DNA of 64,000 nt from Pseudomonadota bacterium. Its GTDB lineage: Bacteria; Desulfobacterota; Desulfobacteria; Desulfobacterales; RPRI01. The notes under the pieces were generated by a model. That model was given only the letters and a program-made list of their open reading frames with translations, had not been told where the DNA came from and searched no databases. Below, one piece after another: positions 42,229 to 63,859 of the stretch. How positions within the stretch are numbered: the first letter of the stretch is position 1; every line of letters begins with the position of its first letter. The stretch lies in contig JBDRRF010000109.1 of assembly GCA_043825875.1 (NCBI GenBank), positions 39,662-103,661 of the forward strand. The letters run 5' to 3'. The translations under genes were made by a program, and so were the position numbers.

Positions 42229-42239
42229 TAATGTAGCTG

Positions 42240-43001: not shown

Positions 43002-43015
43002 GCTGGAGATTGGAA

Positions 43016-46134: not shown

Positions 46135-46180
46135 TATTATCAACAGGTAGTATTTTCTGGCAAGTTACTCATTCCTAATA

Positions 46181-46831
46181 TTAATATCTGTTTATGAATC
46201 TATAAACAAAGCGCAAGCCACCATACACCGGAATATTAATCGCTACAATATTTATAGCAAGAATACAAATCAGATACTGCCATGAAGGCAGGTTTGCCAG
46301 ACCGGCAAATACTGTTTTTTCAAGTCCGGGCCATAATGCATGGGCGCAATTCACATTAGCGGCAGGAGGGAGAAAGTAGTAACTGATTAATATAAGGATA
46401 CCAAAAAGCACCCCCGATCCTATCCATGAATTCTTTGAAATTCCACCTTTTTTGTAGGCCACAAAAAGCAAAACGGGAACCGCATAGAAATGATTGGCAA
46501 CCTGAAGCCATAACCAGATATCGGCATTTTGAAGATAGTAGGTTGTGCCGAAAGGAAATTTGCCAGCAATCAGCCAGACCAAGGTTTCAAAAACCCAAAA
46601 CAAATGATGAATAAATAGGCTGATAAGAGAGACTGAAATCAGCATCCGGCTATTTTTCAGAATGCCAATACCGCCTATGAGCGAAGCAACATGAGAAATC
46701 CAGAATAATTCTTCGGGTGATTTTTTTATAATACAATAAACGATACTGTAGATAAAATGACCAACAAGCGACCATCCCAATAAAGAATATAGCCACGGAC
46801 TGGTTTTATGTTTAAAATTACTTACAACCAT
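46181..46831 (-). CDS. Multi-pass membrane protein, last gene of the lipid/polyketide cluster
   Basis: About 6 TM segments; start overlaps the stop of the Tes-like gene. Confidence 0.7.
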   Translation of the reverse strand: MVVSNFKHKTSPWLYSLLGWSLVGHFIYSIVYCIIKKSPEELFWISHVASLIGGIGILKNSRMLISVSLISLFIHHLFWVFETLVWLIAGKFPFGTTYYLQNADIWLWLQVANHFYAVPVLLFVAYKKGGISKNSWIGSGVLFGILILISYYFLPPAANVNCAHALWPGLEKTVFAGLANLPSWQYLICILAINIVAINIPVYGGLRFVYRFINRY

Positions 46832-48222
46832 CAGCGATTTCTGCTAAGCACATTATGTACACATACCGGAATAACGGTTCCGTCTTTCTGGGGGTAGCCA
46901 TTACAGCAACGCCTTGCTCTTGAAAGATCAAATGTGTCTACATCCTGAAAAGAATGAATGAATATGGATTTTATTTTTCTTTCACTGACTTTAAATACTT
47001 TTTGCGGATTAAAACCTGATTCCGGAATACTGCTGATGTGACGCAACAATTCCCGGATCGCATTTAATGCTTTTTTGGATTCGGGATTACTTGCCGCAGG
47101 CCCTGACCAGAGTTCATAAATACTTTTTTTTATCTGTTCATGAGAATCTTCATCAAGACCGAAAATGCCCTGGTTGGCAATAATATCCAGCCAGGCAGGG
47201 ACATCCATCAGGTGGTTAATCGATACATACCCACCTTCGTCAAGCATAAGATAAAAGGCAAGTGAAAAACAGGCCGGATGGGAACAGGGCAAAGGCGTAA
47301 AATCACGAACCTTTACCTGGCCGGTATTTCCCAACAACTGAATTATCTCAGGCAGTGTAAGCCGCTTTTTGGGAACCGCAAGATCTCTTGCGCGTCCTTC
47401 ATATACCATGGGCTGGATCATCAGGCTGATAATATTGTCGGTTGAAAACAACAAGTTTATCATATCGTACAATGCGTGTTCATTTAAATCCCGCATAGCG
47501 GTCATAGTAAGGCTTGTTGAAATATCAGCAGATATGAGGCGATCAAGAATCATTTGTTTCTCTTTGACTAGTGGCAGGCCTCTAAGCTTTTGGTAAATAG
47601 CATCACCAAACCCGTCGAATTGAAGAGAAATAACCACATCACGAGCCTTTAGTTGTGAAAGAAGATCCGGCTTTTTAAGAAGATGCAATCCGTTTGTTGA
47701 AATACTTACACGAACTATTTCCGGTCGGTTTAAAGCATTATCAAGAATGGCCAAAAGGTCAGGATGAATGAGCGGTTCACCTCCGGATAAATTCAAGACG
47801 TCAATCTGTTTTTCCGCTGCAATAAGATGATCTATCATGTTAGAAAATTCTTCGACAGACAGTTGCTCATTACTGCCCGCATCCACCAGGCATATAGGAC
47901 AATTCAGATTGCATTTTTGCGTGATTTCAATAATCGGCAGGCAGAGATGTTGTTCATGACGGTCGCAAAACCCGCATCCTTTTGGGCATGGCATTTCTGC
48001 GTTTCCATAGCTTTTTACAGGTTGAGAAGCTGGCTTGACATAATGAAGTGTTTTTATATAGTCATTAACATCGGCTCTTACAAATACCTTGTTTATGCCA
48101 TGAACCGGACAGAGCTTTTCAAAATAAAGGTCATTGTTTATATTAAGAAGTTTTGCAGGGACCAATTCCCTGCAAACCGGACAGGTGGATTGAGTAATAC
48201 CAAGTAGTTTATGAGCTGACAT
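46831..48222 (-). CDS. Tes/GDGT-MAS (MJ0619)-like radical SAM enzyme, copy A
   Basis: Rubredoxin-like CPVC...CPVHG; auxiliary CPKGCGFCDRH; CNLNCPIC; C-terminal 'FQDVDTFDLSRARRCC..Y...DGTVIPVC'; start MSAHK. Confidence 0.85.
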   Translation of the reverse strand: MSAHKLLGITQSTCPVCRELVPAKLLNINNDLYFEKLCPVHGINKVFVRADVNDYIKTLHYVKPASQPVKSYGNAEMPCPKGCGFCDRHEQHLCLPIIEITQKCNLNCPICLVDAGSNEQLSVEEFSNMIDHLIAAEKQIDVLNLSGGEPLIHPDLLAILDNALNRPEIVRVSISTNGLHLLKKPDLLSQLKARDVVISLQFDGFGDAIYQKLRGLPLVKEKQMILDRLISADISTSLTMTAMRDLNEHALYDMINLLFSTDNIISLMIQPMVYEGRARDLAVPKKRLTLPEIIQLLGNTGQVKVRDFTPLPCSHPACFSLAFYLMLDEGGYVSINHLMDVPAWLDIIANQGIFGLDEDSHEQIKKSIYELWSGPAASNPESKKALNAIRELLRHISSIPESGFNPQKVFKVSERKIKSIFIHSFQDVDTFDLSRARRCCNGYPQKDGTVIPVCVHNVLSRNR

Positions 48223-49633
48223 AAAAGTTTTCATCCTGTTGGCGGTAAAAAAGATTATAAGTACAGGCTGGAATAAGTTTTGTGTCTTCACATGGAACCT
48301 GATCCGGACATAAAACTGTTCTGGAACAGTCAAATGTGTCTTCATCCATATGCGAATGTATACAAATTATACGTACGGCTGATTCCGTCTTTATCCTGCG
48401 TTCGGAAAGGCTCAATGGTTTGCCTGGCGGAAAAATATCTTTCACGAATTGCTTAAATACTGGCAGTATATCCGTCCGGTTCTGGGCATATAGACGGTTT
48501 ACTATATCTGTAAAAAAGTCCTGATCATCATTAACCCGCAGCAAATATGAATCTTTTAGCATGTCATGTTGTTCGGCAGTACTTAATACATTTGAAAACG
48601 GTAAAAATAATGTATCTAATTTAAACAGATAACACAGAGAATAGCATAATGGATGGGCGGAAGGTCTGGAAATAAAATCTTCGGGTTTTATTTCACCTCC
48701 AATCCCATCACATAAAATCTTTGTTGCAACATCAACAGGGATATGTCTTGAGCGCTTATAGTTGCCGCCACCTTGTCCCGTATAAGTCATGGTTTGAATG
48801 GTAAGGCTTAATATGTGATCATTGTTTCGTATCAGATCAATTAGTTTGGGCAGTTGGTCTTCGTTTTCATCCTGAATAAGGACATTCAATAAAGTCATCC
48901 TTACGCCGGCTTTTTTTAAATTATCAATTGCTTTAAGTTTGGTTTCAACAAGGTCTGTTCCATGAATCCGGATGCTTGATTCGGAAGAAAAAGTATTAAA
49001 TGACAAAATAACATATACACCAAGCTCAGCCAGCCGGTCACAGAAAGATTGATCATTTGCTAAAGTAATACCATTGCTGTTAAGAGTTACACGACCGATT
49101 TCCGGCCGTTTGCATATCCTGATTATATCGAAAATATCAGGATGAAGCGTTGGCTCTCCGCCGGTAATATTAAACAGATCACATTCGCCGCTTTGTTCAA
49201 TCACATTGTCTACACGACGCTTCATTTCTTCAAGGGAAATATTATAAATTTTATCCGAGCGATTATAAGTAAAACATATAGGGCAGCGAAGATTACAGGC
49301 ATTGGTTACTGATATCACCGGCAGTTGGCAAGGTGTTGCATGCCAGCTGCATGGGCCGCAGTCATGAGGACATCCCTTTCTGCTGCTTTTTTCATTACCG
49401 GAAGAGATTAACGGTGAATGATCTATCCTTGGTTCGCTTATTCTTTCAAGGTACCAGTTTACATCACCTGCTATCAACGCAGAATCATCTGTGCCGCATG
49501 TATGACAAAGCCGTTGTTGCCAGACTTTATTGTCTTTAAACACAATACGGGCCGGAATAATTTTTTTGCATTGACGGCACATGCCGCGAACGGTTGAAAA
49601 ATAAGTATAATTGCGATCAAAAAGTCTGGACAC
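48209..49633 (-). CDS. Tes/GDGT-MAS-like radical SAM enzyme, copy B
   Basis: CRQC...CHTCG; GCPHDCGPCSWH; CNLRCPIC; 'HMDEDTFDCSRTVLC...LIPACTYN'. Confidence 0.85.
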   Translation of the reverse strand: MSRLFDRNYTYFSTVRGMCRQCKKIIPARIVFKDNKVWQQRLCHTCGTDDSALIAGDVNWYLERISEPRIDHSPLISSGNEKSSRKGCPHDCGPCSWHATPCQLPVISVTNACNLRCPICFTYNRSDKIYNISLEEMKRRVDNVIEQSGECDLFNITGGEPTLHPDIFDIIRICKRPEIGRVTLNSNGITLANDQSFCDRLAELGVYVILSFNTFSSESSIRIHGTDLVETKLKAIDNLKKAGVRMTLLNVLIQDENEDQLPKLIDLIRNNDHILSLTIQTMTYTGQGGGNYKRSRHIPVDVATKILCDGIGGEIKPEDFISRPSAHPLCYSLCYLFKLDTLFLPFSNVLSTAEQHDMLKDSYLLRVNDDQDFFTDIVNRLYAQNRTDILPVFKQFVKDIFPPGKPLSLSERRIKTESAVRIICIHSHMDEDTFDCSRTVLCPDQVPCEDTKLIPACTYNLFYRQQDENFYVSS

Positions 49634-50066
49634 AAATCTCCTCTAACATCATCATGTAAATTTTTGGGTCATAAAACATCTCTAATTGAACAGGTTCTAA
49701 TGTAAAAGCACCTTCGGAAATAATTTGTTTACCGGTTTTAATAAGATACTTGTAACTGCTGTTACTGCCATTGGAGTCGGGCATTGTATTTATCTTACAT
49801 TCAAGTATATCGCCCGGAGCTGTTTGTGCTTTATATTTGACATAGTCAATTGTTTTAAGCAGGCCAATATATTTAAATTGACTTGATACCGCCATAAGAA
49901 AAGCAGCAGATTCCACTGCAAGCTGTAAAATCAGCAATTCAGGGAATTCTCCTTTTCTGCCCCAGCGCTTTAGAAGAGAGAACTCCTCAAATGAAATTGC
50001 CTTTCGGGTGTTAATGGATGTATTTTCGCAATATCGGATAATACTGTCAACCAAACGGAATTTCAT
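49617..50066 (-). CDS. FabZ-like hotdog protein lacking the catalytic His
   Basis: 'FRLVDSI', 'PGDIL'; no HFP motif. Confidence 0.65.
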   Translation of the reverse strand: MKFRLVDSIIRYCENTSINTRKAISFEEFSLLKRWGRKGEFPELLILQLAVESAAFLMAVSSQFKYIGLLKTIDYVKYKAQTAPGDILECKINTMPDSNGSNSSYKYLIKTGKQIISEGAFTLEPVQLEMFYDPKIYMMMLEEICVQTF

Positions 50067-50080
50067 TTACTTTCCTTTTA

Positions 50081-50794
50081 CTATAATCCGCCATCTACAA
50101 TAATTTCCTGAGCATTTATATAGCTTGCATCTTCGCTTGATAAAAAATAGATAACAGAAGCGACTTCGCTCATTTTACCAGGCCTTCCTGCAGTACAATG
50201 TTTTAAATATTCCTCTTTTCTTTTTTCCGGTACCATACTACTGACACCGGATTCCAGCATGCCAGGTGTTACCATATTTACGCGAATTTGATAACGAGCA
50301 AGTTCTTTTGCCAGTGAAACTGTAAAACCGAATACTGCTGCTTTTGTTGTCGCATAATGCACCGGAACTTCAAGGAGGCGTTTCCCGGCAATAGATCCGA
50401 TATTAATAATCACACCTTTTTTGGCGGCTATCATGCCTCTTGCGACTGCCTTGGTTGTCAGAAACATGGATTTCAGATTAGCATTAATAATATAATCCCA
50501 GTCTTCTTCTTCAATCAGAGCAAACGGCATAACCTGAGTTGCACCGGCATTGTTTATCAGAATATCTATAGCAGGGACTTGTTTTTCAATTTGCTCTATC
50601 ATCTGTGCTACCTGGTCCGGCTTGGTTAAATCCGCCTGAATAGGCGTAGCCCCTGTCTTTTCGGCAATTTTTCCGGCGTTTTTACTATTTTGATGAAATG
50701 TAAAAAAAACCCGATCATTTGCCTCGGTATAACGTGCTACCAGCACCTGGCCCAATTCACCGCTTCCGCCTGTGATCAAAACAGTTCTATTCAT
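50081..50794 (-). CDS. fabG: 3-oxoacyl-ACP reductase (SDR)
   Basis: 'TGGSGELG', 'NNAG', 'YATTK', 'VDGG'; likely start MNRTV. Confidence 0.85.
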   Translation of the reverse strand: MNRTVLITGGSGELGQVLVARYTEANDRVFFTFHQNSKNAGKIAEKTGATPIQADLTKPDQVAQMIEQIEKQVPAIDILINNAGATQVMPFALIEEEDWDYIINANLKSMFLTTKAVARGMIAAKKGVIINIGSIAGKRLLEVPVHYATTKAAVFGFTVSLAKELARYQIRVNMVTPGMLESGVSSMVPEKRKEEYLKHCTAGRPGKMSEVASVIYFLSSEDASYINAQEIIVDGGL

Positions 50795-51185
50795 TTTTAT
50801 TCTCCAATGTACTTTCAACCAGATTTATCATGGTTGAAACCCTGAATCTTTTCGGAAATTCCTGAATGGTAAGGCCATCACAGAGTTCTTTTTCCGGGAT
50901 TTCTGTCATGTGTTTGCGGATTAAGGTCATAGCTTCTTTCGTATATACGCCTTCTACTTCAAGCGGAATATCTCCCAGTTCTTTTTGAATCTGTTTTTCG
51001 AATTTACGGGCAGAAAGCTTTATCTTGAAGCGTTGTTCAAGCTGAAAAATCAAGTCCAGTAAATCCAACGAATCCGCACCAAGATCATCAATCAATTTGG
51101 ATGTTTCATGTATGTCAGCACGATTGATATCTACTACTTCAACCAGGCAATCCTTTATGCCGTTAAATATATCTTCTCTTGTCAT
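50787..51185 (-). CDS. Acyl carrier protein with a long insertion (132 aa)
   Basis: 'DLGADSLDLLDL' phosphopantetheine motif; about 45 extra residues before the final helix. Confidence 0.85.
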   Translation of the reverse strand: MTREDIFNGIKDCLVEVVDINRADIHETSKLIDDLGADSLDLLDLIFQLEQRFKIKLSARKFEKQIQKELGDIPLEVEGVYTKEAMTLIRKHMTEIPEKELCDGLTIQEFPKRFRVSTMINLVESTLENKNE

Positions 51186-51192
51186 TATCTGC

Positions 51193-51792
51193 CTAATCTA
51201 TAATTGTTAGTATATGTTTAATATCATTTCGGCCCGGTGGCAACGGGTTTTCATCAGGGTACCCCAGTGCTATAAGACACACCAGTTCTCTTTTATCCGA
51301 AATGTTTAAAATCTGTTTGACTTCATTTTCAGCCGCAAGAAATCCGGAATATACACATGTGCCCAATCCTTTATCATGTGATGCCAAAAGAAGATTTTGC
51401 ACAGCCATACAAGCGGATGCGTAGCTTCCTGTAATTTTAGCTGCGTTTTCACCATATCGTTTAATTAAAAACCGCGGTGGCTTTTTAATATCTGCCATGA
51501 TTAAAACAGGCGCGCTTACAAAAGAAATAAATTTACCTGCATATGTCTTTATAGGATCGTCAATTCCGGATTCTCCATCACATGACTGTGACCATTTCTT
51601 TTCTACTACAGAAGAAATTTGTTTTTTTACTTTATGAGACCGGATTAAGGTAAATCGCCAATCCTGACGGTTCATGGCATTGGGCGCCATAACGGCATAT
51701 TCAATGAGTTCAAACAACAATTCATTCGGCGGCATTTTTTCTAAAAAGCGGTGTACACTTCTTCGGTCTTTTATGGCCTTTAACAAGTCCAT
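51193..51792 (-). CDS. Nitroreductase-family flavoprotein
   Basis: 'RRSVHRF', 'APNAMNRQDW', 'AVQNLLLA...GLGT', 'LGYP'. Confidence 0.88.
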   Translation of the reverse strand: MDLLKAIKDRRSVHRFLEKMPPNELLFELIEYAVMAPNAMNRQDWRFTLIRSHKVKKQISSVVEKKWSQSCDGESGIDDPIKTYAGKFISFVSAPVLIMADIKKPPRFLIKRYGENAAKITGSYASACMAVQNLLLASHDKGLGTCVYSGFLAAENEVKQILNISDKRELVCLIALGYPDENPLPPGRNDIKHILTIID

Positions 51793-52538
51793 TATAAGCT
51801 ATATCCTCCGTCAATCCGCATAACCTGGCCTGTAATATAAGAACAGGCATCGGAACACAAAAAACACACCAGTTCGGCAACCTCAACCGGCAACCCGAAA
51901 CGGCGAAGAGCAATTTTTTTAAGAATTTCTTCTCCGTATTCATTGCGTACCCGTTGTGTCATTTTAGTTTCAATACAGCCTGGAGCAATACAATTAACAA
52001 GAACTCCCTTACGACCCAGTTCAAGAGCCAATACACGTGTAATTGATTCAAGTCCTGATTTTGAAGCAGCATAATTAATCTGGCCGCGACCTCCTCTTGT
52101 AGCAGATAAAGAAGAAATGTTTACAATTCTTCCATAGCGATTTGTTATCATATATTTTGCAACACTGCGGCATAAATAAAAAGCTCCGTTTAAATTAACA
52201 TCAACCACATCTTTCCATTCATTATTATTCATACCCAGAGCAGGTTGTTCTATATTAACTGATGCGCAGTTTATCATTATATCCAGGCGCTTTTCTTTTT
52301 CAAAAATCAATTCACACAACTGATTTATCCGGTCAGAATTTTTTATATCCAGAGAATGCAAGCTGCATGATGAAAGTGTTTTTAAAAACTCTTCGGCACG
52401 CGACATATTTTGATGCGCTGTAAGATAAAGTTTTATATTCTGATGTGATAATTTTTCAACTACAGCTTGACCTATATCACTGCTTACCCCCACAACAAGT
52501 GCAACTTTTGGATTATTTTGGGCCTTATTAATTGCCAT
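51792..52538 (-). CDS. fabG: 3-oxoacyl-ACP reductase (SDR)
   Basis: 'VGVSSDIG', 'GQINYAASK', 'YITGQ..RIDGG'; start about 52538-52547. Confidence 0.85.
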   Translation of the reverse strand: MAINKAQNNPKVALVVGVSSDIGQAVVEKLSHQNIKLYLTAHQNMSRAEEFLKTLSSCSLHSLDIKNSDRINQLCELIFEKEKRLDIMINCASVNIEQPALGMNNNEWKDVVDVNLNGAFYLCRSVAKYMITNRYGRIVNISSLSATRGGRGQINYAASKSGLESITRVLALELGRKGVLVNCIAPGCIETKMTQRVRNEYGEEILKKIALRRFGLPVEVAELVCFLCSDACSYITGQVMRIDGGYSL

Positions 52539-53775
52539 GTTTCGCATTACCTAAAATTATTGCGGCATTTTGTCCGCCAAAACCAAAAGAATTTTTTAAA
52601 ATATTAGTGCCGTTAAATTCTCTTGGGCAGTCCACAATATGATCCAGTTCACATCCATCTCCGGTTTTTTGTAATGATCCATTGGGATGTAGTATATGTT
52701 GAACAAAACCCTGAATACATGCGGCTGTTTCAATTGCCCCGGCGGCACCGATAAGATGCCCGACAAGAGATTTGGTAGATATAACAGGAATGCTTTTCCA
52801 TTTATCTCCAAAAATTCTGCGTAACATAGTGGCTTCCACCTTATCGTTTTGATAAGTCCCTGTACCATGAGCGCTAACAGCATCAATTTTATTTGCTTTA
52901 ATATTTGCATCATTTAAAGCATTTCGAACAGCTTGCTCTCCGCCGGCACCTTCCGGATCAGGAGCGCTTAAATTATATGCATCTAAAGATGTGCCATATC
53001 CTTTAATTTCCGCATAAATGGATTTATTCATTTTTATAGCCTGATCCAAAGGTTCCAGCACAAACATGGCTGCACCTTCTCCTATAACGGTTCCGCTTCT
53101 GGCGGCATCAAAAGGTCTGCACGCGCGCTCACCAAGAACATTATTTGTATTTAAAGCGCCTAATAATTGGAATCCTCCGATGCCCAGTGGATTGATCATG
53201 GAGTCAAATCCGCCACATAGAGCCATATCATAAGAACCGTCCCGGATACGCCGAAACGCATGACCGATTGCCTGAGTGGATGCTGCACAAGCGCTTACGT
53301 TTGAGATTTTTAATCCGGGAGAACCATATACTGTTTCAATCAGTTCACATGCTGTATCTAATGGCATCTGGAGCGGACGTGCCCCATTTTTTAAACTTCT
53401 TTTTACAATATCTTTTAGCTGTGTGCTTTTGTTTTGAATAATCTTTTGAAGGTCGATTGTTTCAAGTGATGTCCCTATATGTAAAAGTGCTTTGGGGTTA
53501 AGATTTTTTATGCCTGCATCTTTCATGGCCTGATCGGCGGCATTTAATGCAAAAGATATTTTAACATCTTCTTTAAATATTTTATCATATTCACTGAAGC
53601 CTGGTATTTGATGTTTAATTTCGCCTGCAAGGTGTACTTCAAATTTACTACTGTCAAAACGCGATATTTTTGATATGCCGGATACACCCTTAGAAATACA
53701 AGACCAGAAAATATCTATTCCAACGCCAAAAGGCGAAACGCATCCGATACCTGTAATAACAACCCTTCTTTTCAT
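52528..53775 (-). CDS. fabF: Beta-ketoacyl-ACP synthase (FabF-like, intact C-H-H triad)
   Basis: 'SACAAS', 'HGTGT', 'GHLIGAAG', 'NSFGFGGQN'. Confidence 0.9.
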   Translation of the reverse strand: MKRRVVITGIGCVSPFGVGIDIFWSCISKGVSGISKISRFDSSKFEVHLAGEIKHQIPGFSEYDKIFKEDVKISFALNAADQAMKDAGIKNLNPKALLHIGTSLETIDLQKIIQNKSTQLKDIVKRSLKNGARPLQMPLDTACELIETVYGSPGLKISNVSACAASTQAIGHAFRRIRDGSYDMALCGGFDSMINPLGIGGFQLLGALNTNNVLGERACRPFDAARSGTVIGEGAAMFVLEPLDQAIKMNKSIYAEIKGYGTSLDAYNLSAPDPEGAGGEQAVRNALNDANIKANKIDAVSAHGTGTYQNDKVEATMLRRIFGDKWKSIPVISTKSLVGHLIGAAGAIETAACIQGFVQHILHPNGSLQKTGDGCELDHIVDCPREFNGTNILKNSFGFGGQNAAIILGNAKHGN

Positions 53776-55173: not shown

Positions 55174-55188
55174 TTTTCTCCCGTAAGA

Positions 55189-56463
55189 TTATTTGCCTGG
55201 TTTTTGAAAAAAAGATCGTCTGAAAGTCCACAGCACGAACAATATACTTAGTATAAAACAAAATTCGGTTATTTCTTCCCAGAAATCCATCCAAAATAAT
55301 GAATCATCATAACAATGAAACAAAACAAACCGAAACATAGCAAAAGACATTGTGCCTATTGCTGCGGCAAAAATAAGTTTTGCAGTATGTACGGCATTTT
55401 TATTTTTCCATAATATAAAGGTAGCAGCCAACATTAAAATAGATGCCACAAAAGGTAAATACTGCATTTCAAACAACTGATAAATGACCGGATGGCTGTA
55501 ATTGTAAGCAATATCCACAATAATCGTGTTATAAGAAACCATTTTTAATTTGGCGCAAACAGGCATAAGAGCAATGCCGGAAAAGGCAATTCCTGTAAAT
55601 ATTAATACTCTTTGCAAACCGCAGGTAACATCGTCATATTTTATGCATTGGCGGCATAATCCGGCCAGTGAGCAGGGTTTTTTTTGATCGGAATAATGGA
55701 GCAGATATTTATCTATGCCTTCAAAAAGACCATATAGAAAAAAACCAAAGGCAAGAAGCATACCGACAATATGCAGGTATTCAAACAAATAGGAATCATG
55801 ATTAAAAAAAATATAATTAGCGGCACAACTGTTTTCTCCATTAAAGAAAAAAAACATGGAGTATTTGATTGCGCGCATTTCGGGTTCGGTTTTATTCCAA
55901 AGGATAACAAAAATTATAAATGATAAAAGCGTATATAAAGGTTTGACAACAATGCCGTTAAACACGGCAACCCATTGTAAAACAATTGGTGTGGCCTTAA
56001 ACGGTATAGGTACCTGTTTTTCTGAAGCACTTATAAAATCGCAGTCTGATTTTTGACAAATACTTCCTGCAGCAGCAATCCATGCCTGTATTCCGCCCTT
56101 TATATTAAATGCTTCTATATCAAGTTTTCTTAATTTTCGAGTAATATCAATACTGGCAAGGCCGTTCTCACAAATTACATACACCTTTTTTGATTTCAGA
56201 TTTGTTATCTGCTCGTTTGAAAGATCTTTTTGTAAAAAAGCCTCATATGGCATATTTTGAGCCGAAGGTATATGGGCGTTGTCAAAATCAATACTATCTC
56301 TTACATCAAGAACAGAAATGCTTTTCGGATCTGATTGCAGCTTTTTTATAACTTCTTGTGCGGATATGGTTGGAACATTGGAAAAAATATAATATAATGC
56401 CGGTGGAATAATTAAGGCGATTGAGACAAACAGGATAAAAACAGTTTTTGCAAATCGGGTCAT
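55189..56463 (-). CDS. Rhodanese domain fused to a multi-pass membrane domain
   Basis: 'LDVRD..DF..AHIPSA', active-site loop 'VICENGLAS', 'GGIQAW'; then about 7 TM segments with a Cys-rich loop. Confidence 0.75.
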   Translation of the reverse strand: MTRFAKTVFILFVSIALIIPPALYYIFSNVPTISAQEVIKKLQSDPKSISVLDVRDSIDFDNAHIPSAQNMPYEAFLQKDLSNEQITNLKSKKVYVICENGLASIDITRKLRKLDIEAFNIKGGIQAWIAAAGSICQKSDCDFISASEKQVPIPFKATPIVLQWVAVFNGIVVKPLYTLLSFIIFVILWNKTEPEMRAIKYSMFFFFNGENSCAANYIFFNHDSYLFEYLHIVGMLLAFGFFLYGLFEGIDKYLLHYSDQKKPCSLAGLCRQCIKYDDVTCGLQRVLIFTGIAFSGIALMPVCAKLKMVSYNTIIVDIAYNYSHPVIYQLFEMQYLPFVASILMLAATFILWKNKNAVHTAKLIFAAAIGTMSFAMFRFVLFHCYDDSLFWMDFWEEITEFCFILSILFVLWTFRRSFFQKPGK

Positions 56464-56499
56464 GGCGTATTTACCTTATGCAAATGAGTAAATAAAAGA

Positions 56500-57525
56500 G
56501 TGAATGATATATTAAAATATTTTTATCATAAATGGTCTAACAAATCCGATAAATGGTATCCTTTTTTATCCGTCTATTATCTTACATATGCATGTGATTT
56601 TCGCTGTCCGTATTGCAGTGATGGCTCAAAGCGCCCTTACTATGCTCTGCCTGCAAAGGTTCTGCCGGGAAAATCCGTAATTTCTCTTATTGAAAAAATA
56701 CGCTCGCATTGTGATTACCTTGTTATTACCAGTGGCGAACCTCTTAACCATCCTGATTTTGAATTTATCATGCAAAGAATCGGAAAACTTCGTTTCAAAC
56801 AAATAGTACTTACAACAAATGGTTATGATTTAGATATTTATTTGTCAGTTATAACAGCAAACATTCATTCACTGGTAATCAGCCTTGATACGCTTGACCA
56901 TACTAAAGCAGATGCATGGTACGGTATTGGAAAAGGCTCATTGAAAAAAATTATATCAAACATAAATCGGGCGGCTAATCAACCCGGCCGAAAATATGAA
57001 ATGCTTATTTCCAGCGTTGTTACTCCTGAAAACATTAATGATCTATATGATGTTTATCATTTTGCAAAACAAAATAACTGTACTTTTGCTGCCTGCCCGC
57101 AACTTGTCGGCGTAAAAGCGCATAAGGCACTAAACGATAACCCCGACTACCGGCAATTTTATGACTTTCTTATAGCCGAAAAGCAAAAGGGCGGTCCGGT
57201 TTATGGCACTTTGCTTTATCTTGAATATATGAAAAATTTTAGCAAATTTACCTGTTATCCTTTTACTATGCTGGTTGTATCTCCCACTGGAGATGTATTT
57301 TATCCCTGTCTTGAAATCGGAAATCTTGCTGAAAATCTTTTGGAAAATAACCATTTACACCAAATCCGATCAAATGCCAAGAACAAGTTTGGCCCTCAGC
57401 CTGATTGCGCCAGGCAATGCCATTCGGCATGCGCTCTTGGTTTTTCACTTATACTTACTTACCCGTTTTCATTGTTTAATGAATTGTATTTTATGCTTAA
57501 ACAAAAATTAAAAACTCTGTCCTAA
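56500..57525 (+). CDS. Radical SAM protein with SPASM/twitch-like C-terminus
   Basis: CDFRCPYC; 'SGEP'; C-terminal 'TCYP...YPC...CARQCHSAC'. Confidence 0.85.
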   Translation: MNDILKYFYHKWSNKSDKWYPFLSVYYLTYACDFRCPYCSDGSKRPYYALPAKVLPGKSVISLIEKIRSHCDYLVITSGEPLNHPDFEFIMQRIGKLRFKQIVLTTNGYDLDIYLSVITANIHSLVISLDTLDHTKADAWYGIGKGSLKKIISNINRAANQPGRKYEMLISSVVTPENINDLYDVYHFAKQNNCTFAACPQLVGVKAHKALNDNPDYRQFYDFLIAEKQKGGPVYGTLLYLEYMKNFSKFTCYPFTMLVVSPTGDVFYPCLEIGNLAENLLENNHLHQIRSNAKNKFGPQPDCARQCHSACALGFSLILTYPFSLFNELYFMLKQKLKTLS

Positions 57526-58542
57526 TTTAACTTCTCTTGTCATCTGATAATAATCAAAAAGATTGGCCAGCCGCTGTTTTCCATACAAAATTGTTTCTAT
57601 AGACCCGCGGCAGCTTGTCCAGCAATTGTTGCATGTGTTCGTTTTATGCATTTTGGTAAGATTATGCAAGATGGTTGACATATTGTCCGTAAAAATATTT
57701 CCTGCAGATTCGTCCAGTCTGTCTATACAAAGTGATATACTACCTTGTGAATCAATGTTGATAAGATTCTTACCGGTAAAGCATAATGGTTTGCCATTGT
57801 TCCCGTTTCCCTTGGAAATGCCGGTCAGGTAATCTCTTAGTGCCACAAAGTGCCGATATTTGTTATGAAGCGATCCCAAATGATCACTGATTGTTTTCTC
57901 ATTTTCTACCGGTTTAAAATTACCCCTATTGTTTGAATAGTAAGAAATAAGATAAGTCACTCCGATATCCTTGCAAAGCCGAATCAATGGTTCAATATCT
58001 TCTATATTATCATCTCCTACAGTTGTAATCATATGTACGCGCTGATAAGGATGCGCCCTGTTTTTATTTAATACATAAAGTGCTTCTACAGCCCTGTCAA
58101 AGGCACCTTTTTTACCGCGCATCTTGTCATGTTTTTTTGGATCGGCATAGTCCACGGAAACGCTGATTTCATAAAGACCTGCCTTAAAAAGATCTTGTGC
58201 AATATCTTTTGTAACAAACCATCCGTTTGTAATCATTACCCCGAAATTATCTTTTGAAAGTAATCTTGCAATTTCGATAACATCAGGATGCAAAAGGGGT
58301 TCGCCTCCACCGATGGAAATCACCTGAGGGCCTATGCCCTTTAATTTTTCCGTAATTAATTTTGCCTGGGAAAGGGATAACTGAGGTTTTTGGGTATACG
58401 GTGTTTTCCAGAAATCACAAATGTTGCATTTGAAATTGCATTGATACAAAATCTGCAAATTCACATGAATTATTCTTTTTCTTATAAAAGAAAGAGCGTA
58501 TTTGATTTTTTTACTGTGTTCTTTCAATAATGTTTGGGCCAT
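57508..58542 (-). CDS. Radical SAM protein with SPASM/twitch-like C-terminus
   Basis: CNFKCNIC; 'GGGEP'; 'LCFTG...SLC...CNNCWTSC'. Confidence 0.85.
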   Translation of the reverse strand: MAQTLLKEHSKKIKYALSFIRKRIIHVNLQILYQCNFKCNICDFWKTPYTQKPQLSLSQAKLITEKLKGIGPQVISIGGGEPLLHPDVIEIARLLSKDNFGVMITNGWFVTKDIAQDLFKAGLYEISVSVDYADPKKHDKMRGKKGAFDRAVEALYVLNKNRAHPYQRVHMITTVGDDNIEDIEPLIRLCKDIGVTYLISYYSNNRGNFKPVENEKTISDHLGSLHNKYRHFVALRDYLTGISKGNGNNGKPLCFTGKNLINIDSQGSISLCIDRLDESAGNIFTDNMSTILHNLTKMHKTNTCNNCWTSCRGSIETILYGKQRLANLFDYYQMTREVKLGQSF

Positions 58543-58551
58543 AGATTTAAA

Positions 58552-59343
58552 CTAAAAGCCATATGCCGGGTTATTAATGTCAAATTCCATATCCGAAAAG
58601 CAATTGTTAATTTTAATGTCTGAATAGTAGTACATTTCCAAAAGCTCTTTGTCCCATCCATATACTTCAATTTTTATCGGCAGCATCAGTTTCTTATCTA
58701 AATAAATATATATGATATGCCCATAATAGCATTTTTTTCTGGGGAAAACTGCTTTAATTAAATATGTTTGGCGACCATCTAATATATATTTTTTCTCTAT
58801 ATCAATAGATCCTTCCTTATTTATTTTGGCTTGGTTGTAATTATTTTCAATCAGATCAATTATATGACTAAAATCTGATTCAAATATAGTGTGGCGGTTG
58901 TACTTCATATAAAACCAGCCTCCGGGATCTAATGAAAGATTAATAAATCCAAGAAATTTGCCAAGATGCACTTCTAATTTGTTATCATATTTGCCATGAA
59001 CATAGATTGCTTCAGCGCCTTCTCCTACTCCTTCTGTATACTTATAATAGTATGAAGCAGGCTTTTTGAACTTGAAAATAATGTTTTTTTCTTCAACCAG
59101 TTTATCTTTGAGCCGCTCTTTTTTGTGAAACATACAGGAAAAATCTGATACTTTGCTATAGCTTTGCCTGCACTGTTTTATGAAAAGATCCAAATCAGCA
59201 GAATAAGCCTGTGCAGCATATGATAATGAAAAAACAAATATTACTCCAACCTTGAGCGTATATTTGCATTTTCCGATAAGATTGCCGCAAGTTTTATTTA
59301 TCATCTTCTTCCTCTTTGCGTTCCCCATTATCTTACAGGACAA
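58552..59343 (-). CDS. DUF1571/LolA-like exported protein
   Basis: 'FHKKER', 'GAEAIYVHG', 'LPIKIEVYGW..LLEMYYY...F..NNPAYGF'; start uncertain. Confidence 0.65.
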   Translation of the reverse strand: MSCKIMGNAKRKKMINKTCGNLIGKCKYTLKVGVIFVFSLSYAAQAYSADLDLFIKQCRQSYSKVSDFSCMFHKKERLKDKLVEEKNIIFKFKKPASYYYKYTEGVGEGAEAIYVHGKYDNKLEVHLGKFLGFINLSLDPGGWFYMKYNRHTIFESDFSHIIDLIENNYNQAKINKEGSIDIEKKYILDGRQTYLIKAVFPRKKCYYGHIIYIYLDKKLMLPIKIEVYGWDKELLEMYYYSDIKINNCFSDMEFDINNPAYGF

Positions 59344-59417
59344 ACTTCTTTAACAATAGTTGTACCAGTAATAAACCTCAATAGATAGCTGTCTGCTAAA
59401 AGCAATTACGCCTCCAA

Positions 59418-59513
59418 CCCTACTAGCTGCTTGGCATGTTCAGCGTTTGTAAGGTCAATAGGCTCAAGTGAAACCATCTCACCACCAACTTCCCGAATTA
59501 TGCGGTCCGTTTC
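59418..59513 (-). pseudogene. Fragment of an SDR oxidoreductase gene
   Basis: Manual translation ETDRIIREVGGEMVSLEPIDLTNAEHAKQLVG resembles an SDR N-terminal segment; no start codon. Confidence 0.4.
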
Positions 59514-59514
59514 C

Positions 59515-62500
59515 TTATTGCTCTTTTGTTTCCCGTTGAATATTACGGGTAAAAAGATTATACAAAACAGGCAGCACAACTAGAGTCAACAGGCCTGAAA
59601 CAAAAATACCGCCTACTGAAGCAATGCCGATACCATAGCGAAATTCACTTCCCAATCCCCGGCCGACCGCCAGTGGCAGCATTCCCAAAATCGCAGCCGA
59701 AGTGATCATTATTATTGGCCGCAGTTCATCAAGCGCCGCTTTAATCATTGCTTCATGCCGGGGCAAGCCTTGCTCGATATATTGATTCATCTTTCCCATG
59801 ATAAGAATGGCATTGTTAACCACAATTCCAATAAGCATAACAGCTCCTAGAAGAATGAAAATATCAATAGGTTTGCCCGCTATGTAGAGTGCCCAGATAA
59901 AACCGATCAGTGCCATTGGTATGGTAAATAAAATAATAATTGGTTGTTTGAAGGATTCCAGAATAGCTGCAAGAAGCAGATAAGTGAGTACGATAGCAAT
60001 TATTCCGGCTTCCATAAACTTTTCGCCGGCTTCTTCCATATCCTCGGTTTTGCCGAAGAAGCGATAAGTATAGCCTGGAGGCAAATTGCCTTTTTGGTCA
60101 ATAGCCCGGCTCAAGTCTTTTACTACTGTGGCAAGAGGCGTATTGCCGCTTAGATGGGCATATACCAGTGAAACGCGGCTCTTGTCTTTTCGGTTAATGA
60201 GAACAGGGGAAACGGTTTCTTCTACCTTTGCGAAATTATCAAGAGTAATAGGATGTCCCGGTCCTCCAGGAAAAAGAAATGCTTTTACCTGGTTTTTACC
60301 TTCTTTTTCTGCAAATTTAACTCTAATGTCGTAAGTGCGTGCGCCTTCTTTGTAGGAACCTGCAATAATACCCTCCAGGTTACCTCTTAAGACAGTCCCT
60401 AAACCAAAGATTGGTGTATCCAAATCGGAGAGAACCGCCCTGCGTGGCTGGATGCGAAGTTCAGGCTTGCCTGATCGGGCTGATGAATCGGGATCGACAA
60501 TGCCCTTAATCTCCCGGCAAAGCTTCAGCACTCTTTCTGCTGCGCTGTCCAAAACCGAAAGATCCGGGCCTGCAATTTCCATTTGAAGGGGTATGTTTTG
60601 TCCGCCCAAAGGGTCTGTTGCGCTCGCGGTTACAATACTATCCGGGTAATTTGCCAGCCGGCCGCGGACTTTTACTAATATATCTTCCATGGTCTCGGTG
60701 CGTTTTGTCCTGTCAACAAACTTGATCAGAATCTGGCCGAGATGCACACCTTCGGAGGATGCGCCCAAAAGATTTTCCACCTTGCCGACCAGGGTGAATA
60801 GGTTGGATACGTTTGGCAGGTCCTTGAGTAAATCTTCAGCCTGCTTCACCCTCGTTATTGTTTGTTCAAGATCGTATGCTGTAGGATATTCAAGTCTTAC
60901 AACCACTTCTCCCTTGTCGACATCACCAAAAAAAGTAAGACCGACCAACGGGATAAGTTTAATTGACAAATAGGTCAAAAGAAGCACCACGCCCAGTAAT
61001 CCTGTAGCAGCCCAGCGATTGCGCGTCAAACGGCGCAGAACTGACTCATAGCTTACGGATAAACGGTTAAACATCCGGTTCCAGGCGGCTTCAATACTAC
61101 CGGATAATTTCTTGTTTGATTTTATCCGGTTTTGCTTCAATAAAAATGAGCAGAGCATTGGGGTCAGGGTAAAGGATATGAAAAGAGAAATGGCGGTTGC
61201 ACCGATCATGGTTAAGGCAAAAGGATTAAAAAACCGCCCGACCATGGTCCCCATCAGGGAAATCGGAAGAAGAACCACTGCATTGGTTCCTGCGCTTGCC
61301 AGTACGGCTGTGGCAACATCGCTTGCACCCATTTTGGACGCCTCGATCGGGTTGTTTGTCTGTGACATGCGCGTGACAATACTTTCCATTACTACAATCG
61401 AGTTTGTAACCAGGATACCCACTGAAAGACCCACAGCAAGAAGTGTTGAAGTATTTAAACTGAACTGCATGCTGTGCATAAAAAGGATAGTGATTACGAT
61501 TGTAACCGGCATGGTTATTGCCACAACCAGAGTGGGACGAAAATGGTGAAGGAAAATAAACAGAACTGCTGCTGTCAACAGTACCCCTGCTGCAATGTTA
61601 GAGGCTGCGGCGTCAGCAGAAGCCTGAATAAATGCACCATCGTCTGAAACCCAAACAAGGTCCATGCCTCCGGGCAATGTGGCCTTAATATTATCCATGG
61701 CCTCATGTACAAGGTTTACTACTTTAACGGTATTTGCATCTGCTTTTTTCACAACCCGGATGCCGATACATGTTCTGCCGTTGATAAATGAGGCCTGACG
61801 CAATTCTTCCGTTGCCATGCTTACCGAACCAATATCTTTCAGGTAACAACGCGAGCCCTTTTCATTTGAAATCTCCAGGTTTCCGATGTTGCTCACTTTT
61901 CTGTACTCAGCATCAAACTTGACGGAATATTCCGTTCCTGACTGTTTTACACGGCCTGAAGGAATAGTGCTGATGCCCTGTTTTATTGCATTAACTACGG
62001 CTATGCTAGTAAGTCCCCGGGCTGCGAGCTTGTCTCTGTCCAGCAAAATGTTGACTTCCCTCTCTGCACCGCCGAATAACTGCACATCGGCAACACCCTG
62101 AAGCACCGAAATACGATCGCGAAGGGTATTATCGGCGTAATCGTACAACTCCTCCACAGACAGTTCTCCTGTGAGGGCAAATGTAATTATAGGCCTGGCA
62201 TTTAAGTCAAATTTGAAGACTTTGGGTTTTTCGGCATCCACCGGCAGTTTCTCGATGATAAGATCTATTTTTTCCCTGACATCATTTGCTGCTTCATCGA
62301 TATTCACATCAAGTTCGAACTCAAGAAATGTCTGACTGACATTTTCCATACACGTAGAGGTGAAGTGCTTGAGTCCGTCAATGGAAACCACTGCATCCTC
62401 GATTTTCTTGGCAATATCAGTTTCTATTTCAGCAGGGCTGGCGCCAGGGTATACGGTGACAATTGTAATAAAGGGGGAGTCCATTTTGGGAAGAAACTCC

Positions 62501-62601
62501 AGTGGCATTTTTCTGTATGCGTTTAGTCCTAAAAGAATCAAGGCAATGATAAGACAAGATATCGCCACAGGCCGTTTTATTGAAATATCCGGAAGAAGCA
62601 T
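59515..62601 (-). CDS. RND efflux permease (AcrB family)
   Basis: 'IKRPV', 'YPGASP', 'GIVVNNAIL', 'RPIIMITS'; 1028 aa. Confidence 0.93.
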   Translation of the reverse strand: MLLPDISIKRPVAISCLIIALILLGLNAYRKMPLEFLPKMDSPFITIVTVYPGASPAEIETDIAKKIEDAVVSIDGLKHFTSTCMENVSQTFLEFELDVNIDEAANDVREKIDLIIEKLPVDAEKPKVFKFDLNARPIITFALTGELSVEELYDYADNTLRDRISVLQGVADVQLFGGAEREVNILLDRDKLAARGLTSIAVVNAIKQGISTIPSGRVKQSGTEYSVKFDAEYRKVSNIGNLEISNEKGSRCYLKDIGSVSMATEELRQASFINGRTCIGIRVVKKADANTVKVVNLVHEAMDNIKATLPGGMDLVWVSDDGAFIQASADAAASNIAAGVLLTAAVLFIFLHHFRPTLVVAITMPVTIVITILFMHSMQFSLNTSTLLAVGLSVGILVTNSIVVMESIVTRMSQTNNPIEASKMGASDVATAVLASAGTNAVVLLPISLMGTMVGRFFNPFALTMIGATAISLFISFTLTPMLCSFLLKQNRIKSNKKLSGSIEAAWNRMFNRLSVSYESVLRRLTRNRWAATGLLGVVLLLTYLSIKLIPLVGLTFFGDVDKGEVVVRLEYPTAYDLEQTITRVKQAEDLLKDLPNVSNLFTLVGKVENLLGASSEGVHLGQILIKFVDRTKRTETMEDILVKVRGRLANYPDSIVTASATDPLGGQNIPLQMEIAGPDLSVLDSAAERVLKLCREIKGIVDPDSSARSGKPELRIQPRRAVLSDLDTPIFGLGTVLRGNLEGIIAGSYKEGARTYDIRVKFAEKEGKNQVKAFLFPGGPGHPITLDNFAKVEETVSPVLINRKDKSRVSLVYAHLSGNTPLATVVKDLSRAIDQKGNLPPGYTYRFFGKTEDMEEAGEKFMEAGIIAIVLTYLLLAAILESFKQPIIILFTIPMALIGFIWALYIAGKPIDIFILLGAVMLIGIVVNNAILIMGKMNQYIEQGLPRHEAMIKAALDELRPIIMITSAAILGMLPLAVGRGLGSEFRYGIGIASVGGIFVSGLLTLVVLPVLYNLFTRNIQRETKEQ

Positions 62602-63815
62602 TAGAGACTTTCCTTTTGGACGGTGACACGAGTTCCTTCTTCAAGCAGAAACTGCCCCATGCTCACCACAAAGGTTTTTTCGTGAAGATTATTTCCCTTA
62701 AGCTCAATCCATCCATCACTTTCAAGGCCGGTCTCAACCTCGACCATTCGGGCCACATCTTTTTCAACCAAAAAGATTATAGTGCGACCCGCGCGTTGTT
62801 GAAGAGAAGCCTTCGGAACTCCCAGGCCCTTTCGTTGCGCGAGCAGTACTTCTATTTCGGCCATGGCCCCCGGAACAACATTTTCAGGTGGGTTCTTTAT
62901 AACGCATTTAATCTCAAAGGTACGCATTTTTTCATGTATGGTAGGGCTCTTGTAAGAAATGACCTGATCTTTCAGTTCAATGCCATAGACCCTGATACGC
63001 ATAGGTGTTTTACCCGGGAGAACTACCGGGTAGTATTCCGACGGCAAAAAAGCCGAAACCTCAATTACTGCTGGGTCCACAATTTCCAGAACCGGTTTTG
63101 TCGTAGCTCCCATCTCTCCCGGTTCCTGGAACCGGTGACTGACCTTTCCGCTGATTGGGGCATAAACAATTGCATCCTGAAGATCCTTTTCGGCCATCTC
63201 CAAAGAGGTCTCGGCCTGACGCTTTTGCTGCTCTGCCAAATCTATCAGAGTTTGTGCAAGTTTGAGTGATGCAACCGCCTGTTTGTAACGGGACTCAACC
63301 TGTTCAAAGTCGTCCTTGCTTACGATATGATCTTTGAGTAACAACATAAAACGATCGAAATCAATCTTAGCCTTGTGAAGGTCTGCTTCCACACGTTCAA
63401 AGTTTGCGTGTTTTTCGCTCAATGCACAATCGGCAATAGCAAAAGCCTGTTTTTCTATCTCTACAGCCTTGTTAAGTTTTAATGCGTCTATTTTAAAAAG
63501 CCTGGTCTTTCCGGCAAGAACAAGGTCTCCTTCATCTACAAAAATTGTCTCAATTGTGGCATTTATACGGGATGGCACCATAGCGATATTTTTTGCTTCC
63601 AGATTGCCCTGTACTACAATCCGCTCCTCGAAATTCCGTATGGAGACAGGTGTTAAAACCACAGGGATCGCACGTTTTACACTGTCTATTGCTTTTTCGG
63701 ATGAACCTGGCTTTGTGCTGGATTGACCGTTTGTTCGGAAATTAAAAACATATCCGAAAATGATCACAATAATGATACCTGCCGTAACCGTAAAAGTTTT
63801 GATTTTACGACTCAT
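62601..63815 (-). CDS. RND membrane-fusion (adaptor) protein
   Basis: N-terminal TM, 'VDEGDLV', 'YAPISG', 'PGAMA'; stop overlaps the permease start. Confidence 0.92.
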   Translation of the reverse strand: MSRKIKTFTVTAGIIIVIIFGYVFNFRTNGQSSTKPGSSEKAIDSVKRAIPVVLTPVSIRNFEERIVVQGNLEAKNIAMVPSRINATIETIFVDEGDLVLAGKTRLFKIDALKLNKAVEIEKQAFAIADCALSEKHANFERVEADLHKAKIDFDRFMLLLKDHIVSKDDFEQVESRYKQAVASLKLAQTLIDLAEQQKRQAETSLEMAEKDLQDAIVYAPISGKVSHRFQEPGEMGATTKPVLEIVDPAVIEVSAFLPSEYYPVVLPGKTPMRIRVYGIELKDQVISYKSPTIHEKMRTFEIKCVIKNPPENVVPGAMAEIEVLLAQRKGLGVPKASLQQRAGRTIIFLVEKDVARMVEVETGLESDGWIELKGNNLHEKTFVVSMGQFLLEEGTRVTVQKESL

Positions 63816-63859
63816 AGATCATTCCTTTGTTTACCGGTTTTGAATATCTTGAGCTTATT

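Follow-up and report, generated by a model that had tools for sequence, protein, structure and literature searches.

In a 64,000-nucleotide (nt) stretch of contig JBDRRF010000109.1 (positions 39,662 to 103,661 of the forward strand, GenBank assembly GCA_043825875.1; hereafter the window), from a Pseudomonadota bacterium of the GTDB lineage Desulfobacterales RPRI01, we found a closely packed run of minus-strand genes (46181–56463) that joins a dedicated type II acyl-chain module to two radical S-adenosylmethionine (SAM) enzymes of the Tes/MJ0619 superfamily, termed rSAM-A and rSAM-B. The window is one member of a widespread, uncharacterised operon family; the gene set, its conservation and the superfamily assignment are firm. 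We put at about even the chance that it carries an operon, conserved and spread by horizontal transfer, whose private type II module and Tes-like pair together make a specialised acyl product. This product is probably a modified lipid, and probably one of the cell envelope. A preliminary description of the stretch had already proposed that a type II module and two Tes-like enzymes belong together. That part of it stood, and every gene that it named was recovered in place by our gene calls (open reading frame (ORF) listing together with Pfam and NCBIfam scans of 17 window proteins), while its picture of an exported, membrane-spanning or ladderane-like product found no support.

Both enzymes are encoded on the minus strand, rSAM-A at 46831–48222 and rSAM-B (474 amino acids, aa) at 48209–49633. 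Each combines the Pfam domains Zn_ribbon_HMPTM (PF23545; 44.7 bits for rSAM-A and 35.3 bits for rSAM-B against a cut-off of 27) and Radical_SAM (PF04055; 74 and 100 bits), and this pairing of HMPTM zinc ribbon and radical SAM core places both in the Tes/MJ0619 superfamily. The open frame of rSAM-A extends to 48345; its likeliest start, 48222, yields a protein of 463 aa, the homologues measuring about 460 aa and typically about 462 aa. The far-best solved relative of both proteins was 7TOL, the glycerol dialkyl glycerol tetraether (GDGT) enzyme GDGT-MAS, which aligned end to end with rSAM-A (E 7e-46, pairwise score 160 bits) and rSAM-B (E 2e-43, 152 bits), including the C-terminal FD..R..C..IPxC segment. 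This segment and the motifs CxxC..CxxH (rSAM-A) or CxxC..CxxC (rSAM-B), CPxxCGxCxxH and CxxxCxxC were invariant or nearly so in alignments of 28 A and 29 B rows. Invariant positions comprised C14, C17, C38, H41, C79, C83, C86, C104, C108, C111, C313, C318, C439, C440 and C454 in rSAM-A, and C19, C22, C43, C88, C92, C95, H98, C113, C117, C120, C330, M429, C442 and C457 in rSAM-B. Judged from sequence, all four Tes-type metal-site motif regions thus align and are conserved in both enzymes, with differences in Cys and Met: rSAM-B has an invariant Met within H-M-D-E-D, aligned to the FMD motif of Tes, and rSAM-A lacks a Met at this position and carries five invariant Cys in its C-terminal half. 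The Tes layout claimed in the preliminary description was borne out by these domains, motifs and alignments.

A position within Tes itself was not. Against the Tes model NF045702 (cut-off 450 bits) rSAM-A scored 206.7 and rSAM-B 195.3 bits, and against the TrsS model NF045646 (cut-off 490 bits) 255.5 and 186.7 bits. Since they lie far below both cut-offs and far from 7TOL, the two enzymes fall outside Tes proper; by sequence they form two distinct lineages that diverged within the superfamily, relatives of Tes and not Tes, with 29% identity to each other over their full length. The preliminary description had itself said that a position outside the Tes clade would tell against it, and at the equivalog level this is where both proteins were found (207 and 195 against 450 bits). 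The genome contains four Tes-superfamily genes in total. The two beyond the window are true TrsS (553 and 661 bits against 490) and, with 329 and 300 bits to 7TOL, are twice as close to this structure as rSAM-A and rSAM-B.

The two window enzymes have evolved as a pair. We computed a FastTree phylogeny of 47 rows from the window, 18 randomly chosen loci with both A and B, two TrsS proteins and seven other paralogues; it was built without archaeal Tes, relative to which placement is given by the profile and pairwise scores above. The A and B clades each received a support of 99, TrsS was separate from both, and the internal groupings of the two clades mirrored each other, with a Verrucomicrobiota set, Azonexus plus Sedimenticolaceae, Muiribacteriota, and the window with Planctomycetota/Nitrospirota recurring in both. 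At the level of sequence, the co-evolution of A and B as two old, anciently diverged clades is firm. Prediction of the rSAM-A/rSAM-B complex with both alignments gave an interface score (ipSAE) of 0.81, compared with 0.00 for the best of three controls; in a benchmark, 116 of 157 solved complexes attained this value, against 2 of 215 mismatched pairs. The runs had at least 90% of contacts in common, and the predicted local distance difference test score (pLDDT) of the partner was 86. The modelled interface is pseudo-symmetric and involves the N-terminal metal domains and residues ~433–441 of both chains. Because 7TOL and 7TOM hold a single chain each, it is unlikely that the prediction was merely remembered, and the model indicates that rSAM-A and rSAM-B probably form a heterodimer. 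A third Tes-like paralogue clade, sister to B in the same tree, occurred downstream of the operon in four Verrucomicrobiota/Planctomycetota loci (L036:12323.., L039:11363.., L042:12323.. and L030:10683..).

The chain-building module precedes rSAM-B in the direction of transcription, with all of its genes on the minus strand. FabZ (54712–55173; FabA-like domain, E 2.5e-22) possesses the catalytic His and Glu and reads DHFP...PGVLILEG. It is followed by the short ketosynthase-like protein KS* (53772–54719) and by KS (52528–53775), a FabF-type ketosynthase (fabF model 370 bits, cut-off 494) whose Cys-His-His triad is intact in the alignment to 1J3N. KS* matches with an N-terminal ketosynthase domain alone and is about 100 residues shorter than KS. 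Its start at 54719 gives 315 aa, and an identical called protein of this length exists in the database; the 30 close database matches above threshold were all about 315 aa long, and every organism name given among them denoted a metagenome-assembled genome (MAG) or an uncultured candidate lineage. The active-site Cys of KS corresponds in KS* to a Pro-Trp-Glu that is invariant in 40 of 40 rows. A Cys-His-His subunit next to a Cys-less paralogue is the arrangement of ketosynthase/chain-length factor (KS/CLF) pairs, and KS* may take a chain-length-factor-like role. Two ketoreductases of the short-chain dehydrogenase/reductase (SDR) type, FabG1 (51792–52547; adh_short_C2, E 1e-57) and FabG2 (50081–50818; adh_short, E 3e-49), enclose a nitroreductase-fold flavoprotein (NTR, 51193–51792; Pfam Nitroreductase, E 2e-28) and a dedicated acyl carrier protein (ACP, 50787–51185; 132 aa). 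The latter has its PP-binding domain with a DSLD motif at residues 10–62 and a C-terminal extension of about 55 aa conserved across 47 rows. The last member, FabZ* (49617–50066), is a hotdog-fold relative of FabZ (34 bits, cut-off 113) without the catalytic His, which is replaced by P, A, S or R in 47 of 47 rows. No FabI, FabD, FabH, thioesterase or acyltransferase was found in the window cluster by the Pfam and NCBIfam scans. The nearest solved relatives of NTR were nitroreductase, iodotyrosine deiodinase, BluB and albonoursin synthase, and NCBIfam added the C-terminal domain of the F420 enzyme FbiB; since some relatives of this kind, albonoursin synthase among them, reduce C=C bonds or introduce them, NTR may be the lacking enoyl reductase or a desaturase.

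The run starts with a protein in which a rhodanese domain is joined to a polytopic, Cys-rich membrane domain (55189–56463, minus strand; Rhodanese E 1e-12, residues 36–130) and ends with a 216-aa polytopic membrane protein (46181–46831, minus strand; about five hydrophobic segments). From FabZ to the end of the run, all junctions are overlaps or gaps of at most 15 nt: KS*/KS overlap by 4 nt, KS/FabG1 by 20 nt, FabG1/NTR by 1 nt, ACP/FabG2 by 32 nt, FabZ*/rSAM-B by 17 nt and rSAM-A/216-aa gene by 1 nt, and gaps of 7 and 14 nt separate NTR from ACP and FabG2 from FabZ*, respectively. Type II module and radical SAM pair thus share a single run with translational coupling. Upstream of the run, in transcription order, lie a membrane-fusion protein (MFP) and a resistance-nodulation-division (RND) pump (59515–63815; ACR_tran E 7e-230, HlyD), a DUF1571/LolA-like protein (58552–59343; DUF1571 E 8e-37) and rSAM-D (57508–58542), a radical SAM/SPASM-type enzyme (Radical_SAM E 6e-24, weak SPASM, PTO1314 108 bits against a cut-off of 306), all on the minus strand. 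A fourth radical SAM enzyme, rSAM-C (56500–57525; Radical_SAM E 2e-16, weak DUF3463), is encoded on the plus strand, convergent with rSAM-D.

To survey the family, we scanned one genome per species and searched the six-frame ORFs of the 71 resulting loci with the window proteins. Full-length rSAM-A was present in 66 of them, and 44 of these with at least 9 kb upstream of rSAM-A served as the counting set. In a descriptive count, KS and rSAM-B occurred in 43 of the 44 loci, FabZ and FabG2 in 42, ACP in 39, KS* and NTR in 38, FabZ* in 36, rSAM-D in 27, rSAM-C in 24 and FabG1 in 23. The kept order was FabZ-KS*-KS-(FabG1)-NTR-ACP-FabG2-FabZ*-rSAM-B-(rSAM-C-rSAM-D)-rSAM-A, rSAM-C elsewhere being usually located between rSAM-B and rSAM-A. 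The linkage of KS and ACP to Tes-like enzymes is thus conserved across phyla, as the preliminary description had anticipated. DUF1571 was found in 10 of the 44 loci, the RND pump and the 216-aa protein in one each, and the MFP in none. Hence the 216-aa gene, the pump and the MFP are not part of the conserved operon, the DUF1571 protein is an occasional companion, and the suggested export of the product, which had relied on pump and MFP, loses its footing. The 216-aa protein matched no Pfam or NCBIfam family, and its ESM Atlas clusters all read 'hypothetical protein'.

More than 2,600 relatives of rSAM-A were counted at E ≤1e-20 among the candidates scored. The record titles of the loci named Planctomycetota, Verrucomicrobiota, Victivallales, Elusimicrobiota, Leptospiraceae, Treponema, Spirochaetes, Nitrospirae, Pseudomonadota, delta- and other Proteobacteria, Riflebacteria and Muiribacteriota, nearly all of them MAGs. 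Within its own lineage, rSAM-A was detected in 2 of 60 other genomes searched, both of the same genus: one holds a 97% identical copy, the other a 38% identical relative of another subclade. It was absent from the 44 other families of the order that were searched. The 97% copy belongs to a sister species (genome G008), in which the region is collinear with the window, pump included, at 94–96% identity. Such patchy occurrence points to horizontal spread of the operon.

From these data we propose the following route. KS and KS* would form a heterodimer, like KS/CLF pairs, that starts and lengthens the chain carried by the dedicated ACP; FabG and FabZ enzymes would process the ACP-bound chain, and the flavoprotein would contribute the missing enoyl reduction or a desaturation. 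An rSAM-A/rSAM-B heterodimer would then abstract hydrogen from unactivated chain carbons and, by analogy to Tes, join carbons within or between chains. The product could be tailored further by rSAM-C and rSAM-D, and the rhodanese-membrane protein may supply sulfur or serve iron–sulfur clusters at the membrane. The carbon–carbon (C–C) coupling is taken over from Tes, and it is from the genes that we infer a partnership of KS and KS*, a task for the flavoprotein, a substrate (acyl-ACP or lipid) and a type of reaction (C–C or carbon–sulfur, C–S).

Several observations weigh against this proposal. With about 30% identity to Tes and scores below the family cut-off, rSAM-A and rSAM-B may perform a different chemistry, and the complex model is compatible with A–A or B–B dimers as well. 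No bacterial Tes homologue has a demonstrated activity according to the accessible parts of two reports (PMC13159169, PMC8941075), and no Tes homologues were detected in diabolic-acid producers (PMC13159169). The catalytic-Glu column of FabZ* holds Glu in 44 of 47 rows and Gln only in the window copy. The window contains no acyltransferase, thioesterase or glycerolipid gene that would account for release or acceptor, and the RND pump is not conserved with the operon. All loci, including the 44 counted, were found via rSAM-A and many of them are kin, which makes the counts descriptive and not independent. Sulfur chemistry and cluster supply would account equally well for the rhodanese domains (21 of 35 well-flanked loci) and for the cysteine desulfurases (14 of 35).

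ORFs of the related loci that remained unmatched were clustered into four families and counted in the 35 loci with both flanks. A hexapeptide-repeat transferase (two members scanned, both Hexapep) was located just past rSAM-B in 23 of 35 loci; a search of the bacterium's own genome revealed no such transferase. The other three families were a fusion of cysteine desulfurase and rhodanese (two members scanned, both Aminotran_5 plus Rhodanese), present in 14 loci, and a PEMT/ICMT-like membrane methyltransferase (one member scanned) and an unannotated 161-aa family, present in eight each. The rhodanese-membrane protein of the window falls into an uncharacterised, unnamed family in the ESM Atlas. 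In 32 rows of this family, C213 and C264 of the membrane domain were invariant (32/32), and the active-site Cys was present in all 15 rows that include the rhodanese part; the Cys-rich membrane domain is thus the conserved portion. The desulfurase-rhodanese fusion, with its rhodanese domain C-terminal, was observed beside the operon at L062:12031–13515 (+), at L055:2440–3972 (+) and in 24 further loci, and a locus seldom had both this fusion and the Cys-rich membrane protein (2 of 35).

One could assume from these genes that the Tes-like pair inserts sulfur: a rhodanese persulfide would load an auxiliary cluster and the C–S bond would be kept, giving a thiolated or thioether-bridged acyl chain or a lipoate-like lipid or cofactor. 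Capture of a substrate radical by sulfur would correspond to the first half of the mechanism proposed for Tes, for which a substrate-to-cluster-sulfur intermediate has been put forward (PMC13459092). This assumption agrees with the conserved active-site Cys of the window rhodanese and its fusion to a Cys-rich membrane domain, with the rhodanese domains near the operon in 21 of 35 loci (7 membrane-fused, 14 of the desulfurase-rhodanese family), and with the Met that rSAM-B keeps at the Tes FMD position, where rSAM-A has an extra Cys. It is a serious rival to C–C coupling, though we consider it unlikely. In 14 of 35 loci there is no rhodanese within the flanks, a search of the bacterium's own genome revealed no desulfurase-rhodanese fusion, and the desulfurase could merely feed the iron–sulfur clusters of four radical SAM enzymes; moreover, retention of sulfur in the product is known for no Tes-family enzyme. 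The favoured reading, an acyl-product operon with a Tes-like pair, can also be sharpened into a bolder form, in which the pair is an obligate heterodimer that acts on a carrier-bound chain, draws on a rhodanese-fed auxiliary cluster and forges a C–S or C–C bridge, giving a new class of cross-linked or sulfur-bridged lipids or cofactors in many anaerobes, above all in the PVC group. In this extended form it is doubtful.

A second alternative is a bacterial pathway to membrane-spanning lipids of the diabolic-acid or branched GDGT (brGDGT) type, in which special fatty acids are made and the tails of two lipids are joined in the manner of Tes. It would explain the homology of rSAM-A and rSAM-B to Tes and would match the literature on bacterial Tes homologues, which are known from counts and a brGDGT hypothesis (PMC8941075, PMC11868695): Zeng et al. 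proposed that they make brGDGTs (PMC8941075), and MAGs of Planctomycetota and Desulfobacterota from an anoxic basin are reported to carry such homologues (PMC11868695). Yet coupling of tails requires no private ACP, no KS pair and no three additional enzymes, the Tes cut-off was missed, and no glycerolipid or ether-lipid genes were seen in the operon, either in the domain scans or among the families of the related loci. In addition, bacterial tail coupling has been proven for Mss, a radical SAM protein of another kind, and no Tes homologues were detected in known producers in the accessible part of the report (PMC13159169). Nothing in our analysis points to the membrane-spanning or ladderane product envisaged in the preliminary description, and we regard this alternative as quite improbable.

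A ladderane-type cluster akin to those of anammox bacteria, yielding the same or a precursor structure, has hardly any likelihood. The combination of a KS with an inactive KS, a special ACP and an odd FabZ does recall anammox Cluster I (10.64898/2026.05.19.726425, PMC10139942), antiSMASH 'ladderane' calls of unassigned function are reported for Desulfobacterota, Verrucomicrobiota and Planctomycetota (PMC9902471), and two of the related loci, L015 and L027, carry titles with anammox-family names (Kuenenia stuttgartiensis, Brocadiaceae). But gene content and order are unlike those of kuste3603–3608 and kuste3335–3352, neither a phytoene-dehydrogenase-like nor a B12 radical SAM gene is present, and the operon occurs in many phyla not known as ladderane makers. 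HZS_alpha was not found in the L015 and L027 genomes, although this domain is unspecific (10 matches in another genome and a match in the Bacteroides control). KS was no nearer to 9S5H, a solved pair of which the identity as the amxFabF heterodimer is not established, than to ordinary FabF (240 versus 262 bits). L015 shows the dense overlapping ORFs of G+C-rich DNA, and the labels of L015 and L027 may be wrong or the genomes incomplete.

An aryl-polyene (APE)/flexirubin-type pigment cluster with a lipoprotein-carrier and pump back end, as might be read from the KS/CLF-like pair, two FabZ-like and two FabG-like proteins, the lack of FabI and the adjacent LolA-like DUF1571 and RND genes, is equally remote, since both FabGs fall below the cut-off of the flexirubin SDR model FlxB (195 and 150 against 340 bits), no aryl-CoA ligase, FlxY-type ligase, ammonia lyase, second ACP or APE-type transferase was seen in the window scans, APE clusters are not known for the four radical SAM genes present here, and the back end was found in few loci (DUF1571 10/44, RND 1/44, MFP 0/44).

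The rhodanese-membrane gene and rSAM-C diverge with their starts just 36 nt apart (56463–56500), so that either their promoters must extend into coding sequence or the starts are annotated too far upstream. A scan for promoter-like sites (53 versus 49.4 expected) and terminator-like sites (17 versus 16.0 expected) was uninformative, and an Rfam scan of 45000–64000 gave no match. On the other side, the plus-strand genes at 37.7–46.1 kb are unrelated to the operon. They include, at 39873–43588, NifU-like, three XdhC/CoxI-type, YqeC and MobA-like genes after an AAA ATPase and a VWA CoxE-like protein, which looks like a molybdoenzyme maturation set; MscS is also among the neighbours below 46134. 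A REC-HisKA-REC-GGDEF protein (44518–46134, plus strand) is missing in the otherwise collinear G008 region. Used as a marker for island boundaries, this flanking gene had only paralogues of 51% identity in the genus, and with G008 collinear no boundary emerged.

These findings matter for the interpretation of environmental data. Bacterial Tes homologues number in the hundreds and have been taken for potential sources of brGDGTs, lipids used as climate proxies, without a functional test, as far as the accessible text of the two surveys shows (PMC8941075, PMC11868695). One large branch of them is, according to our analysis, a co-evolving and probably heterodimeric pair tied to a private chain module, to two further radical enzymes and often to a sulfur relay. 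The wiring of a Tes-like pair to a private module argues for a product other than brGDGTs, and a Tes match in a metagenome should hence not always be equated with tetraether potential. If the bolder form with a carrier-bound heterodimer were true, it would give bacterial Tes homologues a first function, and one other than brGDGT synthesis. The compact, defined set of 12–13 genes lends itself to heterologous expression and could uncover new radical reactions of unactivated carbon chains.

Among known systems, the chain module can be compared with KS/CLF systems such as the actinorhodin KS/CLF, Iga11/12 of ishigamide and AmcF/AmcG of cispentacin with AmcB and AmcE, which likewise comprise a KS and its Cys-less partner, a discrete ACP and FabG/FabZ-like enzymes. 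KS* differs from CLF proteins by a Glu in place of their Gln, and the NCBIfam matches to AmcF (204 against 325 bits), AmcE (42 against 140) and AmcB (30 against 80) were weak and missed all cut-offs. To our knowledge, no KS/CLF-type system with Tes-like enzymes has been described, and our literature search, which did not extend to subscription journals, found no paper on a KS/ACP module joined to Tes-like enzymes and no characterised cluster with the same combination, as the preliminary description had supposed. A 2026 review of lipid-modifying radical SAM enzymes covers Tes, Mss, Gms, Grs and the ladderane proposals, and such an operon is not among them in its accessible text (PMC13459092).

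Anammox Cluster I (kuste3603–3608, with amxACP, amxFabZ and amxFabF2/amxFabFmut) resembles the window in its private ACP, adjacent active and dead KS, unusual FabZ and radical SAM enzymes. As far as the available descriptions go, it differs by a phytoene-dehydrogenase-like (PDH) gene, a B12 radical SAM gene and the lack of a Tes-like pair; the Pfam scan detected no amine-oxidase/PDH or B12-binding domain in the 17 window proteins. Its dead KS keeps the full length and has Val or Thr in place of the Cys, whereas that of the window has 315 aa and an invariant Glu. Content and order also differ from the gene table of kuste3335–3352 (PMC4790861) and from the Kuenenia ladderane clusters in general (PMC2649909, PMC10139942 and the preprint 10.64898/2026.05.19.726425). 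Mss of Thermotoga and Thermoanaerobacter, compared here by its description, uses radical SAM chemistry to couple two fatty-acyl tails through unactivated carbons; it is only remotely related to Tes according to its authors, and the accessible text reports no private fatty-acid synthase (FAS) module (PMC13159169).

TrsS (NF045646) belongs to the same superfamily and is the best NCBIfam match of rSAM-A over its full length. Its name was seen just in a table of one partly accessible paper (PMC13188914), the protein being otherwise uncharacterised as far as seen. The neighbourhood of TrsS is of the DVU_1553–1556 type, that of rSAM-A and rSAM-B is FAS-like, and the TrsS loci lie on other contigs (C35 and C76; L001:1039–2433 and L002:1084–2496, both minus strand). 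There the genes adjoin a DVU_1556-family methyltransferase, a DVU_1555 C-GCAxxG-C-C protein and a DVU_1553 AMP-dependent CoA ligase. With its CoA ligase, radical SAM enzyme and SAM methyltransferase, this gene set represents a second, different Tes-superfamily system in the genome, and its make-up is reminiscent of kuste3344, kuste3343/3342 and kuste3347 of Kuenenia.

A further close system is Tes/GDGT-MAS (M. jannaschii MJ0619, 7TOL/7TOM), with which rSAM-A and rSAM-B share the order of zinc-ribbon/rubredoxin-like domain, N-terminal cluster motif, radical SAM core and C-terminal Cys motif. The published ligand set of Tes consists of a rubredoxin-like site with three Cys and one His, an N-terminal cluster with three Cys and one His, the CxxxCxxC motif and a C-terminal cluster (PMC13459092). 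The first metal site reads CxxC..CxxH in Tes and rSAM-A, whereas rSAM-B has Cys for His; rSAM-A, in turn, deviates from Tes by its extra invariant Cys and the missing Met at the FMD position. Tes acts in archaeal ether-lipid metabolism, where it links two archaeol phytanyl chains through their terminal carbons; its relatives described here, about 30% identical to it, are a diverged paralogue pair and predicted heterodimer in a bacterial operon of the fatty-acid type.

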